NCBI GenBank assembly: GCA_964593995.1
Contig: CAZQKV010000001.1
Span: forward strand, 1-24,944
Direction: 5' to 3'
Length of the DNA: 24,944 nucleotides
Source: Candidatus Woesearchaeota archaeon
GTDB lineage: Archaea; Nanobdellota; Nanobdellia; Pacearchaeales; GW2011-AR1
Positions 1 through 10,353 of this stretch are shown here, in pieces; position 1 is the stretch's first letter, and each line of letters starts with the position of its first letter. The notes beneath the pieces are model-generated. The model was not told the origin of the DNA. It made no database searches and saw only the letters and a list, made by a program, of their open reading frames with translations. The position numbers and the translations under genes were made by a program.

Positions 1-656
1 AGTGTTCTTAAGTGCAATGCCCCTTTTGAATCAGACAGCATTTTAGCTGCTTTAGATAGGTTTTTAGCAGCAACAACTTCTCCTTCTGCTTTAATTATAA
101 CTGCTCTTTTTTCTCTTTCAGCTTCAGCTTCTTTTCCAATTGTTCTTTTTAATTGTTCAGGCAATTCAACATGCTTTAATTCAACACTATCTACTTTTAT
201 TCCCCAAGGGTCTGTTGCTTTGTCTACTATCTCCCTGATTCTTTTTGAAACAGAATCTCTTTTGCTTAATAAATCATCTAATGAAACTTCTCCAACAACG
301 TCTCTCATAGTTGTTTGAGCTAATTGAGAAACAGCATAATCAAATTCCTCAACTTCAATAATCGCCCTTTTTGCATCACTTACTTTATAATAAAGAACAG
401 CATTTACTTTAATAGAAACATTATCTCTTGTAATTGCATCTTGATCAGGAACATCAATTGCCTTAACTCTTATGTCAACTCTTTCCCACGTTTGTAAAAT
501 AGGGATAACTAATCTTAAACCAGGAATCATTATTGAAGTAAATTTTCCTAATGTAAACCTAACCCCTCTTTCATACTCTTTTACAATTTTTAGCCCTGCT
601 AAAATAAAGAATAAAATAACAATTCCTATACCATATAAAAGTCCAATAGCAACCAT
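1..656 (-). CDS. SPFH/band 7 (stomatin/slipin) membrane protein, 3' end runs off the window
   Basis: Not in the ORF track. Manual translation from ATG 656: MVAIGLLYGIGIVILFFILAGLKIVKEYERGVRFTLGK...TRDNVSIKVNAVLYYKV...AQTTMRDVVG...DPWGIKVDSVELKHV...AEAEREKRA. These are typical stomatin motifs, and the frame is open to the window edge. Confidence 0.93.
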   Translation of the reverse strand, partial: MVAIGLLYGIGIVILFFILAGLKIVKEYERGVRFTLGKFTSIMIPGLRLVIPILQTWERVDIRVKAIDVPDQDAITRDNVSIKVNAVLYYKVSDAKRAIIEVEEFDYAVSQLAQTTMRDVVGEVSLDDLLSKRDSVSKRIREIVDKATDPWGIKVDSVELKHVELPEQLKRTIGKEAEAEREKRAVIIKAEGEVVAAKNLSKAAKMLSDSKGALHLRT

Positions 657-693
657 CTTAATTTATATGAAAAATCCTTAATAAATGTTTTGC

Positions 694-1074
694 TTAATTA
701 GATTCTAATTCTCCATAAGCATTTATTAATCTAGTCTGCAACTTTATCATCTCCTTTTTTAATTTTAAGAATCTCTCTTTATGTTTTGTTGTTTTTCTTT
801 TTTGGCTTCTAAGTTTTGCTAATTCTTTTTTCTTTTTATTTAGAAATTCAGAGTTTTGTTTTATTTCAAGATGAAGATTTTTCTTTTTTATATTTCTTAA
901 TTTAATCTTATTAATCATGTTACTTATGTTTTTGTTTGCATTTTCTTGCCTTAATCTTTCCTGGTTTAACTGCTCTGCTATTTGTCTTACTTTTCCTTTT
1001 AAGTTTGCTATTACCTTCCTTGTTCTCGACAAATCTTCACTTACTTGAACCTCTTTTTCTTTTATATTCTCCAT
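694..1074 (-). CDS. Hypothetical basic coiled-coil protein (126 aa)
   Basis: ORF track. Lys/Arg/Leu/Glu-rich helical pattern, same orientation as its neighbours. Confidence 0.75.
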   Translation of the reverse strand: MENIKEKEVQVSEDLSRTRKVIANLKGKVRQIAEQLNQERLRQENANKNISNMINKIKLRNIKKKNLHLEIKQNSEFLNKKKKELAKLRSQKRKTTKHKERFLKLKKEMIKLQTRLINAYGELESN

Positions 1075-1116: not shown

Positions 1117-2259
1117 TCAAAAACCAGTATAATCCAAAACTAATTTCCCTTCCTTATCTCTTAAATAAACAGTATCCCCATCATTATTCCAGATAGCAGG
1201 ACAAGGTCCGCTGCTTCCATGATTTTTCCAATAAAATTCATTGTTTATATCAGTCCCATTTCCACTATATAATGTTACTGATTCTTGTTTTTTTAATATG
1301 AACTCTGGAAAATTATATGTATGAGTTGCCTCATCTTTTACACTCCACCCAGTAATATCACACTCATTATCGCAAGAATTTCTAAATATGATATATTCAT
1401 CATTTGGATTTTCACAATCATCTCCTTCTGCATTTAAATGAAAATAAGAAATTCCTATACATCCTCCGCATAACGAACTTTTTTCCCAAATGCAACCTTT
1501 TGCATTTTTTGCAATTTCTTCAGCTTCTTCTAATTCTAATAAATATCTTTTATTTTCACCAACAATATAGACACTAGCAAATCCTTCTTCAACTAACAAA
1601 ACATTAATATTTTTATCATCAATAATTATATATCTTAACAATCTCTCATAAATATCTTCATTATCAACATCTGTTTCTAATTTAACTTCCTTATTTAATA
1701 TAAGTTCTTCAAGCCTTTCTCTAGCTTTATCATAACATCTTTGTCCTTTTTCTTCAGTATTTATTCCAAGAAGCCTAATCCTTTCTCCACCCTCCAAATA
1801 AACAGTATCCCCATCAATTACTTTTATTACAATTCCTGTTTCATTATTTTCAGGATATTCTATATCAATACATAAATTCTCTATGCATTTTTCATTTCCA
1901 GGGCACAATTTCTCTTCATAATTATTATTTAAACAACACGCATAAGGACAAGTGCCAAAATTAGAATCATTAATTGAGCCATTATCAATTACCAAGGGGG
2001 TAATAGTATTAGCATCTTTAAATCTTGCAAAAGCAAAAACTACAACAACAAGCAAAATAAAAAATAAAATAGTAGAAATTTTTTTACCTTCTTTTTTTAT
2101 AGGTTTGGCAGAAGTAGATTTAGAAGTTTCTAAATATTCTTTAATATCAAAAGAATCTTTTTGTTCTTTAATTAAAGAACCCCCTAATTTTTTCCCACAA
2201 GAAGGACAAAATTGATTTCCTTGTTTTATTTTTCTTCCGCAATGATGACAATAAGGCAT
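1117..2259 (-). CDS. Membrane-anchored thermonuclease (SNase) with N-terminal zinc ribbon and C-terminal lamin-tail domain
   Basis: CHHC...CPSC zinc ribbon, then one TM helix. SNase motifs VIDGDT, IRLLGINTEE, DIYERLLRY. LTD-like motifs NDEYI, DITGWSVKD, VTLYSGNG, IWNNDGDTVYLRD. Confidence 0.9.
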   Translation of the reverse strand: MPYCHHCGRKIKQGNQFCPSCGKKLGGSLIKEQKDSFDIKEYLETSKSTSAKPIKKEGKKISTILFFILLVVVVFAFARFKDANTITPLVIDNGSINDSNFGTCPYACCLNNNYEEKLCPGNEKCIENLCIDIEYPENNETGIVIKVIDGDTVYLEGGERIRLLGINTEEKGQRCYDKARERLEELILNKEVKLETDVDNEDIYERLLRYIIIDDKNINVLLVEEGFASVYIVGENKRYLLELEEAEEIAKNAKGCIWEKSSLCGGCIGISYFHLNAEGDDCENPNDEYIIFRNSCDNECDITGWSVKDEATHTYNFPEFILKKQESVTLYSGNGTDINNEFYWKNHGSSGPCPAIWNNDGDTVYLRDKEGKLVLDYTGF

Positions 2260-2337
2260 GTTCTTTTAAGAAGATTAAATTATAAAAGCTTATCTGAGGT
2301 TTAAAATAACTTTTTTCTCAGCTTCATTTTGTTGTTT

Positions 2338-2496
2338 TTATGCTTTTCTAACTTCTGGGTTTTTTTCTAAGCTCTTATCTAATTCTTCAACAGAACCCCT
2401 ATCTCCTTCAGGAAGGGTTGTATTTATCTTTATAAATCCAGAAGCGTCGCAAATATTTTCTTCAGGAATTTCAATAGTTTTTTCCTTATCTGCCAT
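2338..2496 (-). CDS. Small protein A (52 aa), paralog of small protein B
   Basis: Manual translation MADKEKTIEIPEENICDASGFIKINTTLPEGDRGSVEELDKSLEKNPEVRKA*. BRE-TATA at 2519-2532. Shares 15 of 31 C-terminal residues with the 2534-2668 product. Confidence 0.8.
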   Translation of the reverse strand: MADKEKTIEIPEENICDASGFIKINTTLPEGDRGSVEELDKSLEKNPEVRKA

Positions 2497-2518
2497 TAAT
2501 TTACAAAGGTTTTAATTT

Positions 2519-2532
2519 ATTTATAACTTTTT
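2519..2532 (-). promoter_or_regulatory. BRE-TATA promoter of small protein A (leaderless)
   Basis: Minus strand AAAAAG-TTATAAAT, with the TATA 23-30 nt upstream of ATG 2496. Confidence 0.55.
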
Positions 2533-2533
2533 A

Positions 2534-2668
2534 TTATGTTTTGATGTCAGGATTTTCTTCAAGAGCTCTATTCAAATTTTCAAGAACTCCTCTGTCTCCT
2601 CCTTCAGGAGTAGTGTTTTCATTTATAAATTTTGTAGCAGAGCCTGCCTCTTCTTTGGGAATGTTCAT
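2534..2668 (-). CDS. Small protein B (44 aa), paralog of small protein A
   Basis: Manual translation MNIPKEEAGSATKFINENTTPEGGDRGVLENLNRALEENPDIKT* (TAA TAA). Has its own BRE-TATA at 2693-2707. Confidence 0.8.
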   Translation of the reverse strand: MNIPKEEAGSATKFINENTTPEGGDRGVLENLNRALEENPDIKT

Positions 2669-2692
2669 TTCAAAATTAAATTGCTTATAAGG

Positions 2693-2707
2693 TTTTTAAA
2701 TGTTTTT
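2693..2707 (-). promoter_or_regulatory. BRE-TATA promoter of small protein B (leaderless)
   Basis: Minus strand AAAAACA-TTTAAAAA. The same AAAACATTTA motif lies upstream of the SPFH gene and the 8540 gene. Confidence 0.5.
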
Positions 2708-2779
2708 GATTAATTAAGCAATTTTAATAGATTTTTAATTAAATTTCAATTAAATTTACACAGAATAAGTTTATATAGA

Positions 2780-2807
2780 AGTTCGCACTATCTAGGTTAT
2801 GGAAGTC
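2780..2807 (+). other. Putative dif-like Xer binding site overlapping the xerA start codon
   Basis: AGTTCGCACTA-TCTAGG-TTATGGAAGTC has an 11-6-11 layout and matches 16/28 positions of E. coli dif (GGTGCGCATAA-TGTATA-TTATGTTAAAT) by manual comparison. Confidence 0.4.
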
Positions 2808-3617
2808 AGTGAATTTTTAAAAAGGGTTGAAACAGAAATTAAAATAAGTAAATTATCTGAATATACTTTAAGAAATTATATTGATTTTAATAAAGCATTA
2901 TTAAAGCACTCTAACAAAAATCCTGAGAAAATTGATTCTCAAGATGTTAAGTATTTTCTTGCAGACAAAATGTCTGAAAGAGCTCCTTCTTCTGTGATTT
3001 TATTTCTTGCATCTATTAGATTTGCATATTCTAATGTTCTTGAAAAAGATCCAACTGCAGGAGTTAAAAGACCAAAAAAAGAAGAAAAGATTCCCTCAGT
3101 GTTAACAAGAGAAGAAGTATTGAAATTAATTAATTCTGCCCAAACATTAAAAAGTAGTTTAATACTCCAGTTACTTTATTCTTCAGGATTGAGAGTTTCT
3201 GAGTTAGTTAACTTAAAACCAGTTAATTTAAATTTTAGTGAAAGTAGCGGGTGGGTAAGAGAAGGAAAAGGGAAAAAAGACAGGCTTTTTGTGATGTCAA
3301 AAAAACTTTCAAAAAAGCTTGAGAAATTTATAAGTAGGCACCCTAGTTGGGAATACGTGTTTTCAAAAGAAAAGCCTTTAACTACTAGGAACATACAAAA
3401 GATTGTACAAAAAATTGCAAATCTTATAGGAATTAAAAAAGAGGTTCATCCACACACATTTCGGCATAGTTTTGCTACTCACCTTCTTGATTCTGGGGTT
3501 GACCTCAGGAAGATTCAATTTCTTTTAGGGCACAGTTCAATTGCAACAACTCAGATTTATACGCATATTAGTTCTGATCAAGTAAAATCTATTAAAAATC
3601 CCTTAGATAATCTATAA
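2799..3617 (+). CDS. xerA: XerA/XerC-D family tyrosine recombinase
   Basis: SAM-like N-terminal domain. Full catalytic set: SGLRVSEL (R), GKGKKDR (K), HPHTFRHSFATHLL (HxxR), LLGHSSIATTQIY (H, Y). Confidence 0.93.
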   Translation: MEVSEFLKRVETEIKISKLSEYTLRNYIDFNKALLKHSNKNPEKIDSQDVKYFLADKMSERAPSSVILFLASIRFAYSNVLEKDPTAGVKRPKKEEKIPSVLTREEVLKLINSAQTLKSSLILQLLYSSGLRVSELVNLKPVNLNFSESSGWVREGKGKKDRLFVMSKKLSKKLEKFISRHPSWEYVFSKEKPLTTRNIQKIVQKIANLIGIKKEVHPHTFRHSFATHLLDSGVDLRKIQFLLGHSSIATTQIYTHISSDQVKSIKNPLDNL

Positions 3618-3661: not shown

Positions 3662-3829
3662 CTAGCTATTAATCTCAATAAGATACTTACATATCTCTTT
3701 CTTTCTATCAACTATTCTCTTCCAGGTCGCTTTTGGATACTTTTTCATTAAACTATCCACAGTTCCCCAATATTTTTCAAGCCCAAAATTTAGGCCGCCC
3801 ACCAATGCAAATGAAACCTCTATTATCAT
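3662..3829 (-). CDS. Possible small protein (55 aa) or C-terminal remnant of a frameshifted gene
   Basis: MIIEVSFALVGGLNFGLEKYWGTVDSLMKKYPKATWKRIVDRKKEICKYLIEINS*, preceded by an SD-like GGAGGTG. Family not recognised. Confidence 0.35.
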   Translation of the reverse strand: MIIEVSFALVGGLNFGLEKYWGTVDSLMKKYPKATWKRIVDRKKEICKYLIEINS

Positions 3830-4342: not shown

Positions 4343-4771
4343 TTACCTATATAATCCAATAAATTCTGATTTTTCTAAAATATGTCCTTCCATAGCTTTT
4401 TCAAGTTCTTGTTTTGTTGCCCCGTTTTTTAGATCAAGTTTTGTATCTAATGCATGCAATTTAAAAAAATATCTATGGGTTCCAGAAGGAGGCATGGGCC
4501 CTCCATAATTGTTTCTTCCCCAACTATTTTCTCCTTGGACTCCTGGAATAGAATTTTCTTTAATTTCCATTGTATTTGGAGAAATATTCCATACTAACCA
4601 GTGAATCCATAACCCAACAGGAGCATCTGGGTCATCTATAATCAAAACTAGACTTTCTGTATTTTCAGGAACATCTTCAATTATTAATGTTGGATTAATA
4701 TCCTCCCCATCTCCTGTAAACTTAACAGGGATTTTTTCATTGTTTTCAAAATCAGGACTTGTTATCTTCAT
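4343..4771 (-). CDS. YbhB/YbcL family (PEBP/Raf kinase inhibitor-like) protein
   Basis: Motifs GEDINP, LIIDDPDAP, WIHWLVWNI, YGGPMPPSGTHRYFFKLHALD. Confidence 0.95.
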   Translation of the reverse strand: MKITSPDFENNEKIPVKFTGDGEDINPTLIIEDVPENTESLVLIIDDPDAPVGLWIHWLVWNISPNTMEIKENSIPGVQGENSWGRNNYGGPMPPSGTHRYFFKLHALDTKLDLKNGATKQELEKAMEGHILEKSEFIGLYR

Positions 4772-8539: not shown

Positions 8540-9364
8540 ATGAAAAGGGGTAAATTAAATAAAAATATTTCTTTAATAATTGTAATTAGTGTGGTATTAT
8601 TAACTGCTGTTGCAATGTATGCTCTTTTCAAGCCTTCTAAAGAGCTTACTAAACAAGAACTTCTAGATATGATTGAACAAGGAGAATTAGCAACAACTAC
8701 TTATTCTACTGGGGGGTCTGGAGATATTCTTTCTTGTAGTGCTAATCACATAACCTGGACTACCTCCCCTTTTTTGTATCATATTATAACTGGAATGCAA
8801 AAAATCAAAAATGTCTGCCCTCCTTGTTTTGGAGAAGAAGTAGAAGTTTATGAAGTTACTTTTCCAAATCCGCTTATGGGGGATAATTTTTATATAACAG
8901 CTTGTGATGAACCTGAAAATGGTTCTGATGATTATGGTTCTGATGCATATGCCTGTTATGAAGCAGATTTCGCGGATTTGCGTCCTGAAGCAACTGTATG
9001 TCATCAGTGTGATGATATTGGAATTACTATTGCTAATGGGAGTGATACTGTAACAGAAGTTGTTTTTGCTGTAGATATTAAGCAAAGAACTAATCCTACA
9101 GATTCTGATTTTTGGGCACTTGATTTTCAATCTGCTTGTAATGATAATCCTCATTGTCCAATAAATGAAGATTGTCCTGGAGACACAGATGGAAATGGAA
9201 TTGTAAATATAGATGATCAAACAAATGTAATAGATCACTGGTTAGAACAACCTTGTCCTGCTAAAGAAGGATGTTGTGGTGGTGCAGATCTAAATGGCGA
9301 CGGAATTGTTAATATGGCTGATTTTGCACTTGTTACCGGAAACCCAGGATTTTGTACAAGCTGA
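8540..9364 (+). CDS. Cys-rich surface protein with N-terminal anchor and C-terminal dockerin-like (double EF-hand) domain
   Basis: N-terminal TM helix; duplicated Ca-binding loops GDTDGNGIVNIDD and ADLNGDGIVNMADF. Confidence 0.85.
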   Translation: MKRGKLNKNISLIIVISVVLLTAVAMYALFKPSKELTKQELLDMIEQGELATTTYSTGGSGDILSCSANHITWTTSPFLYHIITGMQKIKNVCPPCFGEEVEVYEVTFPNPLMGDNFYITACDEPENGSDDYGSDAYACYEADFADLRPEATVCHQCDDIGITIANGSDTVTEVVFAVDIKQRTNPTDSDFWALDFQSACNDNPHCPINEDCPGDTDGNGIVNIDDQTNVIDHWLEQPCPAKEGCCGGADLNGDGIVNMADFALVTGNPGFCTS

Positions 9365-9417: not shown

Positions 9418-10353
9418 ATGAAAAATGAGGGGTTAAAAAAGAATATTTCTTTAGTAATTGTAATTAGTGTGATATTATTAAGTTCTATTGCAATGTATTC
9501 TCTTTTTAGGTCTCCTAAGGAACCTACTAAACAAGACCTTTTAAACATACTTAAGGAAAAAGGAGAATTAGGAACTTCAACTGGCTACGCAAGTTCTAGC
9601 GGGGCCTGGTGTGGTGGAGCAGATATTAATAAAGATGGAAAAGTTGATATGAGTGATTTTGATATTCTTGCAGATAATTGGTTAAAAGATGATTGTGCAG
9701 AAGAAAATAATTGGTGTGATGGGGCAGATATTGATAAAGATGGTATTGTTAATATGGTTGATTATTCAATTTTTGCAGACAATTGGTTAAGACAAGATTG
9801 TGCTGATGGCTATTGTGAAGATGGGACTTTAATTGGGGAGTGTTCAAGTCTTAATCCTCCATTATATTGTGAAGGTGAAGGAAGTGGGGATTATGGAAGT
9901 GGTGATAGTGGCGGAGGCTCAGGAGACTTAATATTTGATTTATCTAAATGTGGAGCAGATGCAGGAAAATGCTGTGAGTCTAATAAAAATCCTGCACAAT
10001 TTGCAACATATCTTGCATTAAATCTCCCGCCTTCAGAAAGTTGTAGCAATGCACATACCTATTTTGATGAAGCAACTATCGGTGGCTGGCTTGATACTTC
10101 TTTTTTTGAAACTCAGGGAATGGCGCAAGTTTCAGGAGGTTATCCAACAAGAGTTAAATGTTCAAGTAACTCTTTTGTTGTAAAGTCAGGTAGTGGGGTC
10201 AGATATAAACCAACCCCTTGTATTTTTGTTCCTGCTTCCCTTTCTAACCCACAACAACAAGTAGCGATTTTAGATTGGAGTCACAAGTCATATGCTTATT
10301 GTAGTTATACTAATGGAAACAGTGTTGAAGCAGTAGAAGTTGAATTACCATAA
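9418..10353 (+). CDS. Cys-rich surface protein with paralogous anchor, dockerin-like domain near the N-terminus and a Gly/Ser linker
   Basis: Leader homologous to the 8540 protein. Ca loops ADINKDGKVDMSDF and ADIDKDGIVNMVDY; linker GEGSGDYGSGDSGGGSGD. Confidence 0.85.
   Translation: MKNEGLKKNISLVIVISVILLSSIAMYSLFRSPKEPTKQDLLNILKEKGELGTSTGYASSSGAWCGGADINKDGKVDMSDFDILADNWLKDDCAEENNWCDGADIDKDGIVNMVDYSIFADNWLRQDCADGYCEDGTLIGECSSLNPPLYCEGEGSGDYGSGDSGGGSGDLIFDLSKCGADAGKCCESNKNPAQFATYLALNLPPSESCSNAHTYFDEATIGGWLDTSFFETQGMAQVSGGYPTRVKCSSNSFVVKSGSGVRYKPTPCIFVPASLSNPQQQVAILDWSHKSYAYCSYTNGNSVEAVEVELP

Follow-up and report, generated by a model that had tools for sequence, protein, structure and literature searches.

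Small proteins encoded beside a tyrosine recombinase gene are familiar as Xis/AlpA-type recombination directionality factors (RDFs) and as Xer accessory factors (the FtsK gamma domain, PepA/ArgR/ArcA). Both the RDFs and the gamma domain of FtsK bind DNA as basic proteins of winged-helix or helix-turn-helix (HTH) fold, and RDFs are usually found on mobile elements. The archaeal recombinase XerA recombines dif in vitro without accessory proteins, although Cortez et al. 2010 (PMC2958812) leave room for an in vivo partner that controls directionality or timing. Here we analyse two tandem micro-protein genes that lie beside xerA in a 24,944-nucleotide (nt) stretch of a Candidatus Woesearchaeota archaeon genome (contig CAZQKV010000001.1, assembly GCA_964593995.1), referred to throughout as the window. 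While the pair shares its position beside a tyrosine recombinase gene with the systems above, its products are acidic and predicted to be disordered; furthermore, the pair is located next to a chromosomal XerA equivalog in a core-gene context, and is absent beside the equally similar XerA of sister lineages. Judged by sequence conservation, the two genes are genuine and selected, and represent an undescribed micro-protein family that arose by an ancient tandem duplication.

Results

Two tandem micro-protein genes are under purifying selection

The two open reading frames (ORFs) lie on the same strand, separated by a spacer of 37 nt:

2534..2668, minus strand: short-type micro-protein gene, 44 amino acids (aa), ATG start, product MNIPKEEAGSATKFINENTTPEGGDRGVLENLNRALEENPDIKT; upstream member of the tandem pair
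2338..2496, minus strand: long-type micro-protein gene, 52 aa, ATG start, product MADKEKTIEIPEENICDASGFIKINTTLPEGDRGSVEELDKSLEKNPEVRKA; downstream member of the tandem pair

Both were located by ORF listing, with sequences exactly as quoted in an earlier annotation made from the DNA letters (hereafter the sequence-only reading). BLASTP aligns the short protein to the long one without gaps over 43 residues (19 identities, 30 positives, E 2e-12), and by direct count the C-terminal core is identical at 15/31 positions, just as the sequence-only reading had reported. Its further statement that the N-termini differ stands only in part: the similarity includes an N-terminal I-P-x-E...A motif, and it is only the 7-residue N-terminal extension of the long protein, rich in lysine and glutamate, that is left unmatched. 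At the DNA level the paralogues are 59% identical, with identities of 0.58, 0.74 and 0.44 at the first, second and third codon positions, respectively. Predicted tryptic peptides of the pair include TIEIPEENICDASGFIK, INTTLPEGDR, GSVEELDK, FINENTTPEGGDR and GVLENLNR.

ORF length by itself is only weakly unusual in this AT-rich gap: shuffles of positions 2260..2798 (539 bp, 27% GC) yielded on average 0.33 ORFs of at least 44 aa, with P(>=1) = 0.29 and P(>=2) = 0.04. Since DNA of 27% GC yields ORFs of such length by chance fairly often, the case for real genes rests on conservation. Measured against four orthologue sets in five related contigs, the ratio of non-synonymous to synonymous substitution rates (dN/dS) is 0.08-0.15 for the short gene and 0.06-0.23 for the long gene. 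The sense frame is the sole frame that is open throughout in 11/11 loci, and both length and frame are kept at protein identities as low as 33%. Taken with the paralogy, the codon-position pattern and the orthologues in preserved frame, these values indicate that both ORFs are genuine protein-coding genes under purifying selection, as the sequence-only reading had argued. A 49-aa TTG-initiated ORF antisense to the short gene (2541..2690, plus strand) was also considered as a gene and was rejected, as it contains stops in several of the orthologous loci.

The pair founds a family of two subfamilies restricted to one clade

While a word-index search returned six proteins only, HMMER run exhaustively over 1.84 billion representatives brought in another dozen small relatives of full length, and two further profile searches saturated at ~32 sequence clusters. 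Short-type orthologues comprise P0005, P0006 and ~18 more clusters; long-type orthologues comprise P0002, P0003 and ~9 more. Searching metagenomes with the subfamily alignments yielded three further loci and no more, and pattern scans of 185,579 species-representative genomes yielded no further canonical family members. Orthologues are thus far known from ~10 independent contexts that are either metagenomic or metagenome-assembled genomes (MAGs). The sources are marine, salt-marsh and sediment samples, and the window itself matches salt-marsh metagenomes.

Two extended ORF calls excepted, family members are 44-54 aa long (44-48 aa for the short type, 51-54 aa for the long type), none is fused to another domain and, where named at all, they are called 'hypothetical', as in the GenBank record 'hypothetical protein GOV14_02205, Candidatus Pacearchaeota archaeon'. 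The short type follows the motif M-N-[LI]-P-E-E-N-I-G-S-A-T-G-x-x-R-E-D-[ST]-T-P-x-x-G-x-x-G-x-L-E-[EN]-L-N-K-A, and the long type has a K/E-rich N-terminus followed by I-P-E-E-N-I-x-x-A-S-G-F-x-x-x-N-T-T-x-x-x-G-D-[KR]-G-x-V-E-E-L-D-K-A-L. Four residues (P, G, G and L) are invariant in all 30 aligned members, with an A and a T nearly so; the C-termini are variable (...EVRKA, ...DIKT or ...KIKFA).

In every locus with enough DNA to tell, the order is the same: short type and then long type, 30-40 nt apart. Within a genome, the short and long proteins are 25-48% identical, and between genomes the identity is 33-84% for short-short and 45-90% for long-long comparisons. Because the two types within one genome are no closer to each other than same-type proteins are between genomes, the duplication predates the clade, and both copies have been kept ever since. 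The alignments thus establish the pair as an ancient tandem duplication, short type then long type.

We then compared the family with curated libraries. The two window proteins have no match in Pfam (E <= 1), NCBIfam, PHROGs or PADLOC; all 30 members searched against Pfam at E <= 10 gave scattered single matches only (EFP and POTRA, for example), and a profile search of the PDB remained at chance level (designed coiled coils, superoxide dismutase). Large 'significant' profile matches were rejected as homologues, being either tetratricopeptide repeat (TPR) arrays, whose scores add up many weak matches to single repeats, or translated CRISPR-like repeats (P0027, P0045). Likenesses noticed by eye to AbrB/SpoVT-like and ribbon-helix-helix proteins, small acid-soluble proteins (SASP), the EF-hand, and the SHP-box, HbYX and PIP-box motifs were likewise set aside: the spacing or key residues misfit and no model matches. 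The absence of matches in curated libraries, together with the orthologues, agrees with the proposal of the sequence-only reading that this is a new small-protein family. By sequence comparison, the micro-proteins form an undescribed family that occurs only within a single clade of Pacearchaeota-like DPANN archaea. The sequences have already been deposited as hypothetical proteins; as far as our searches show, it is the family, its two-type structure and the pairing that are undescribed in the literature.

Each gene has its own putative promoter

Putative TATA boxes, two of them preceded by a B recognition element (BRE), are located upstream of both genes:

2694..2707, minus strand: putative BRE/TATA of the short gene, AAAAAC-ATTTAAAA, at -39..-26 from the ATG; leaderless spacing
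2684..2691, minus strand: second TATA-like box of the short gene, CTTATAAG
2517..2532, minus strand: putative BRE/TATA of the long gene, AAAAAG-TTATAAATAA, with the TATA at -30..-21; within the 37-nt intergenic spacer

The ATTTAAAA box of the short gene occupies -33..-26. The same layout is seen elsewhere in the window: the genes at 8540 and 9418 carry ATTTAAATAA at exactly -30..-21, and TATA boxes are similarly placed before xerA and before the nuclease gene beyond the pair. The BRE/TATA of the short gene is conserved in two related loci (L001, L005), and a TATA-like box stands at about equal distance in the short-to-long spacer of all loci examined (L001, L003, L006, L008, L010). The claim that each gene has its own BRE-TATA at leaderless spacing thus agrees with the promoter grammar of the window, and is supported as a prediction from sequence. 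As no oligo-T terminator stands before the BRE/TATA of the long gene, transcripts of the short gene may also run on into the long gene.

A perfect 10-nt inverted repeat (2678..2687 / 2715..2724; AAATTGCTTA / TAAGCAATTT; arms 27 nt apart) flanks the putative TATA/BRE of the short gene. Its first arm is not conserved in L001, and the repeat may be due to chance.

The products are predicted to be disordered save for one helix

AlphaFold2 models were built with the 30-sequence family alignment and are of low to moderate confidence. The long protein is modelled with a single helix at residues 35-45 (predicted local distance difference test score, pLDDT, 69) and the short protein with a helix at residues 28-38 (pLDDT 67), the remainder being coil in both cases. 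The helix is amphipathic (hydrophobic moment, muH, 1.6-1.8). Both window proteins have an isoelectric point (pI) of 4.5, and 28/30 members lie at pI 4.2-5.6; all are hydrophilic, with grand averages of hydropathy (GRAVY) of -0.2 to -1.1. The products are predicted to be largely disordered when alone. The helix falls in the conserved motif G-D-x-G-x-[VL]-E-[EN]-L-[DN]-K-A-L-x-x-N-P, which comes after a conserved extended segment [IL]-P-E-E-N-I-G-x-A-[ST]-G ... [ND]-[TS]-T.

The helix motif accounts for the TPR matches mentioned above. The family profile matches dozens of TPR proteins repeat after repeat, over 15-18 residues and with 2-9 bits per repeat: the profile segment 'kGalEeLnkaLkknpk' aligns to 'RGAIEEYNKAIEINPK' in many repeats, that is, to the turn, helix B and the N-P cap. 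The helix B signature (A20, F/Y24, A27, P32) after a G-D/N turn is present in the family, and the AlphaFold helix coincides exactly with the helix B-like segment. Comparison with TPR units by hhalign gave 81% probability over 18 columns, in a test that is biased by the units having been drawn from the profile's own matches. Pfam TPR models (TPR_1/2/8/11/12/16 etc.) match neither the window proteins at E <= 1 nor any of the 30 members at E <= 10. The family cannot be counted among the TPR proteins: it has no Pfam TPR match, no helix A and no arrays of three or more units. We read the helix as one built like TPR helix B and, to go by motif and model, suited to packing against other helices.

A candidate protein-binding hetero-pair

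The best overall explanation, to which as a whole we give an even chance, combines a selected, clade-restricted paralogous pair, which the sequences show, with a role as a protein-binding hetero-pair, which is our best guess at low confidence. The short and long paralogues would function together as a small hetero-oligomer that folds upon binding, its amphipathic helices packed either on one another or on a partner; the pair would serve as a protein-binding adaptor or regulator and would not act on DNA. We propose a hetero-oligomer because the paralogues have stood side by side, 1:1, since before the clade diversified, and because neither looks able to fold alone. A fold-on-binding module is the most economical form for it, since each protein offers one packing-type helix and a sharply conserved extended motif. 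Put in this specific form – a hetero-oligomeric fold-on-binding module that acts on a protein partner – the proposal draws on predicted structures and is tentative; we would sooner bet against it than for it. What probability this mechanism and its rivals below leave over goes to explanations of some other kind.

Several points weigh against the hetero-pair. The low pLDDT may reflect the shallow 30-sequence alignment rather than true disorder. A mirror-tree comparison of short and long distances gave r = 0.40 with p = 0.09, which is not significant. A search for RNA sequencing runs containing the window or the related locus L008 returned none. A separate promoter for each gene does not require co-function. 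Finally, that the pair has stayed beside xerA while the genes downstream changed could betray a hidden functional tie.

Stress protection by disordered peptides

The two products could instead be hydrophilin-type protectants, that is, abundant disordered peptides that would lessen salt, desiccation or oxidative stress and need no particular partner for it. As one would expect of such proteins, they are strongly hydrophilic, mostly of acidic pI and predicted to be disordered; they come from salt marsh, marine water and sediment, and genes for VIT1-like proteins, superoxide dismutase (SOD), EncFtn-like proteins and desulfoferrodoxin recur near several of the loci. However, the invariant P, G, G and L and the two subfamilies that are kept distinct fit a specific interface better, the sequences have neither LEA-type repeats nor low-complexity segments, and there is no Pfam LEA, KGG or CsbD match. 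We consider this explanation unlikely.

The link to xerA is best explained by descent

The divergent neighbour of the pair is a well-supported XerA gene:

2799..3617, plus strand: xerA, 272 aa; NCBIfam NF040815 recomb_XerA_Arch 228.5 bits (cut-off 220); Pfam Phage_integrase

Divergent transcription from xerA, as described in the sequence-only reading, recurs in every larger context recovered: xerA lies upstream of the pair in all of the ~10 independent contexts, while beyond the pair the gene content differs between contexts. This constancy could mean that both peptides bind XerA or its synaptic complex and tune the timing or direction of dif recombination. Such a role would sit well with the in vivo partner of archaeal XerA left open in PMC2958812, and with locus L011, where the far side of xerA has been rearranged and yet the pair is retained.

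The genomic distribution speaks against it. XerA is 72-81% identical among the pair-bearing loci, so that these genomes are fairly close relatives. In Pacearchaeota MAGs whose XerA is 69-74% identical, the place upstream of xerA is taken by other genes, and its flanks contain no family member. Neighbour-joining of XerA sequences groups the pair-bearing loci in one clade with the pair-lacking ones outside, and because the pair-bearing loci are monophyletic on XerA, a single insertion beside xerA in the ancestor of the clade followed by vertical descent suffices for the adjacency. The pattern scans of species genomes described above yielded no other canonical member, and XerA is 272 aa long throughout, with or without the pair. 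Nor is the adjacency strict: a VIT1-like gene stands between xerA and the pair in L006, L010, L012, L013 and two further contigs, all of one subclade, and elsewhere the two are separated by a 121-aa ORF (L021) or by a 124-aa gene (L005). The surroundings are those of a chromosome, with ribosomal proteins S9, L13, L18e, S11, S4 and S13, RNA polymerase subunits and three tRNAs in the window, and ribosomal protein operons 7 kb from the pair. The proteins are acidic and their models contain one helix and no HTH or other DNA-binding fold; Xis, AlpA and HTH models of Pfam match neither the window proteins nor, at E <= 10, any of the 30 members. Finally, a strongly conserved promoter element of xerA is present in pair-lacking genomes as well.

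The suggestion of the sequence-only reading that the pair is a recombination accessory or directionality factor is not supported, in view of acidic coil-plus-helix products, similar XerA without an adjacent pair, monophyly and intervening genes. On the sequence evidence, the linkage to xerA is best explained by a single gain and vertical inheritance, and we regard a role of the peptides in tuning XerA as improbable. More improbable again is its most explicit version, a clade-specific XerA partner whose acidic peptides dock on XerA or the synapse at dif, fold on binding and gate chromosome-dimer resolution. Were it true, archaeal Xer systems would have their first accessory factor in the pair, which would then matter for how chromosome-dimer resolution is controlled in archaea in the absence of FtsK.

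Several features around xerA deserve a record of their own. Upstream of its ATG at 2799, the core promoter and the TATA-to-start segment (2770..2790, plus strand; TTTATATAGAAGTTCGCACTA) are almost invariant: there are 0-3 mismatches per 21 nt in all Pacearchaeota loci, including the pair-lacking ones, despite XerA identities of 69-81%, which suggests an operator or other cis element. A dif-like site at this promoter was considered and rejected: GTGCG is common to it and the XerC arm of bacterial dif, but there is no convincing second inverted arm. In L005, a close relative, the insertion point of the 124-aa gene (640..1014, minus strand) is precisely the start codon of xerA: the conserved promoter of xerA now serves the inserted gene, the ATGGAA start is duplicated, and xerA follows immediately downstream. 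The VIT1-like genes (159 aa; iron/manganese transporter family, weak matches) lie at 4449..4928 in L006, 4423..4902 in L010, 1932..2411 in L012 and 5429..5908 in L013, and genes of iron metabolism and oxidative stress (SOD, EncFtn-like, desulfoferrodoxin) are grouped around xerA in L010 and L011.

Downstream nuclease and other neighbours

On the other side of the pair lies a gene with staphylococcal-nuclease and lamin-tail domains (SNase-LTD):

1117..2259, minus strand: SNase-LTD nuclease, 380 aa; N-terminal zinc ribbon, hydrophobic segment, staphylococcal-nuclease domain, lamin-tail domain

To judge by its domains, the protein is probably a nuclease that is anchored in the membrane and faces the outside of the cell; DPANN archaea could use such enzymes to scavenge nucleic acids. 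The peptides might then be an inhibitor, immunity factor or chaperone of this enzyme: they are encoded on the same strand and immediately upstream of it in the window, L001 and L002, with the nuclease gene one gene further downstream in L011 (a Pacearchaeota MAG), and acidic peptides can mimic nucleic acid. The adjacency, however, is limited to close relatives and L011, and is not constant as it would be in a toxin-antitoxin or nuclease-inhibitor pair. In L006-L010, L012, L013 and two further contigs the genes downstream of the pair are unrelated, coding for a 221-232-aa unknown protein plus HTH_45, DeoC or a beta-CASP nuclease. The nuclease gene has its own TATA box, its catalytic domains are predicted to be extracellular whereas the peptides have no signal sequence, and PADLOC gave no match for the two proteins. 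We judge a partnership with the nuclease to be very improbable.

Two short tandem paralogous ORFs with Thr/Ser/Gly-rich middles also bring to mind the precursors of a two-peptide natural product or secreted signal, akin to ribosomally synthesised and post-translationally modified peptides, and the tandem arrangement is superficially like that of two-component bacteriocin precursors. The peptide-precursor idea of the sequence-only reading finds no counterpart at the loci: radical-SAM, LanM/LanB, YcaO, protease and exporter genes are missing beside the pair in every one of them, conservation runs along the whole length of the proteins with no split into leader and core, and there is neither a conserved Cys nor a double-Gly (GG/GA) or other cleavage motif. 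This explanation is extremely improbable. As for the idea that the ORFs are due to chance, or that the gap from xerA to the nuclease gene is non-coding and regulatory, which the frequency of ORFs in the shuffled gap and the 49-aa antisense ORF might favour, the low dN/dS, the frame and length preserved down to 33% identity, the antisense frames broken in other loci and an Rfam search of the locus with no match at E <= 1 have effectively refuted it.

Two further sets of genes in the window may be mentioned. A second conserved micro-protein ORF (3662..3829, minus strand; 55 aa, MIIEVSFALVGGLNFGLEKYWG...KKYPKATWK...) converges on the 3' end of xerA. Every pair-bearing locus examined has an orthologue of 54-55 aa, which in L011 is found at a distance from xerA; neither Pfam nor NCBIfam has a match for the ORF, and no copy was seen in the flanks of pair-lacking MAGs. 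Two adjacent genes with dockerin type I domains (8540..9364 and 9418..10353, both plus strand) share an identical promoter motif, AACATTTAAATAAA, at -33..-20 and are a possible paralogous pair of surface-protein genes.

Discussion

The length cut-offs of gene callers miss selected genes in DPANN genomes, and the present pair is a case in point. It adds a well-delimited micro-protein family with two subfamilies, ~32 clusters and a clear motif. As it stands, this is one more lineage-restricted DPANN family among many, and its immediate importance is modest; such pairs are, however, convenient test cases for the function of tiny, apparently disordered proteins in reduced genomes.

How, then, do the proteins compare with known ones beyond the recombinase-associated factors? 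With modifiers of the Pup/UBact type they share a size of ~50-60 aa, acidity, disorder when alone and a C-terminal helix possibly forming on binding. Unlike these modifiers, the pair proteins do not end in a GGQ/GGE or R-[ST]-G-[EQ] motif, Pfam Pup does not match them, and neither ligase nor depupylase genes are located near the pair. Actinobacterial-type pupylation is not known in archaea. Hydrophilins, LEA-like proteins and small acid-soluble stress proteins are likewise small, very hydrophilic, rich in Gly/Thr/Asn/Glu/Lys and predicted to be disordered, with an amphipathic helix; the family differs from them in its sharp invariant positions, its two stable paralogue types, the lack of internal repeats and the lack of a LEA, KGG, CsbD or SASP match.

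The likeness to the TPR repeat is local. The loop and helix B of the repeat (positions 15-33 of 34) resemble the family segment G-D-x-G-x-[VL]-E-[EN]-L-[DN]-K-[AS]-L-x-x-N-P: the TPR consensus reads G-D-Y-x-G-A-I-E-D-Y-N-K-A-I-E-L-N-P, and the shared positions are A20, Y24 (L in the family), A27, L28 and the capping N/D-P32. This is half a repeat only, and there is one unit per protein and no array. The counterpart of helix A (W4, L7, G8, Y11) is rich in Pro, Gly, Thr and Ser in the family and is modelled as coil. The helix segment is possibly descended from a fragment of a TPR repeat. Taken as a whole, the pair belongs to a familiar category, the lineage-restricted small proteins of DPANN archaea, and has within it one unusual trait: both duplicates have been retained side by side across a clade.

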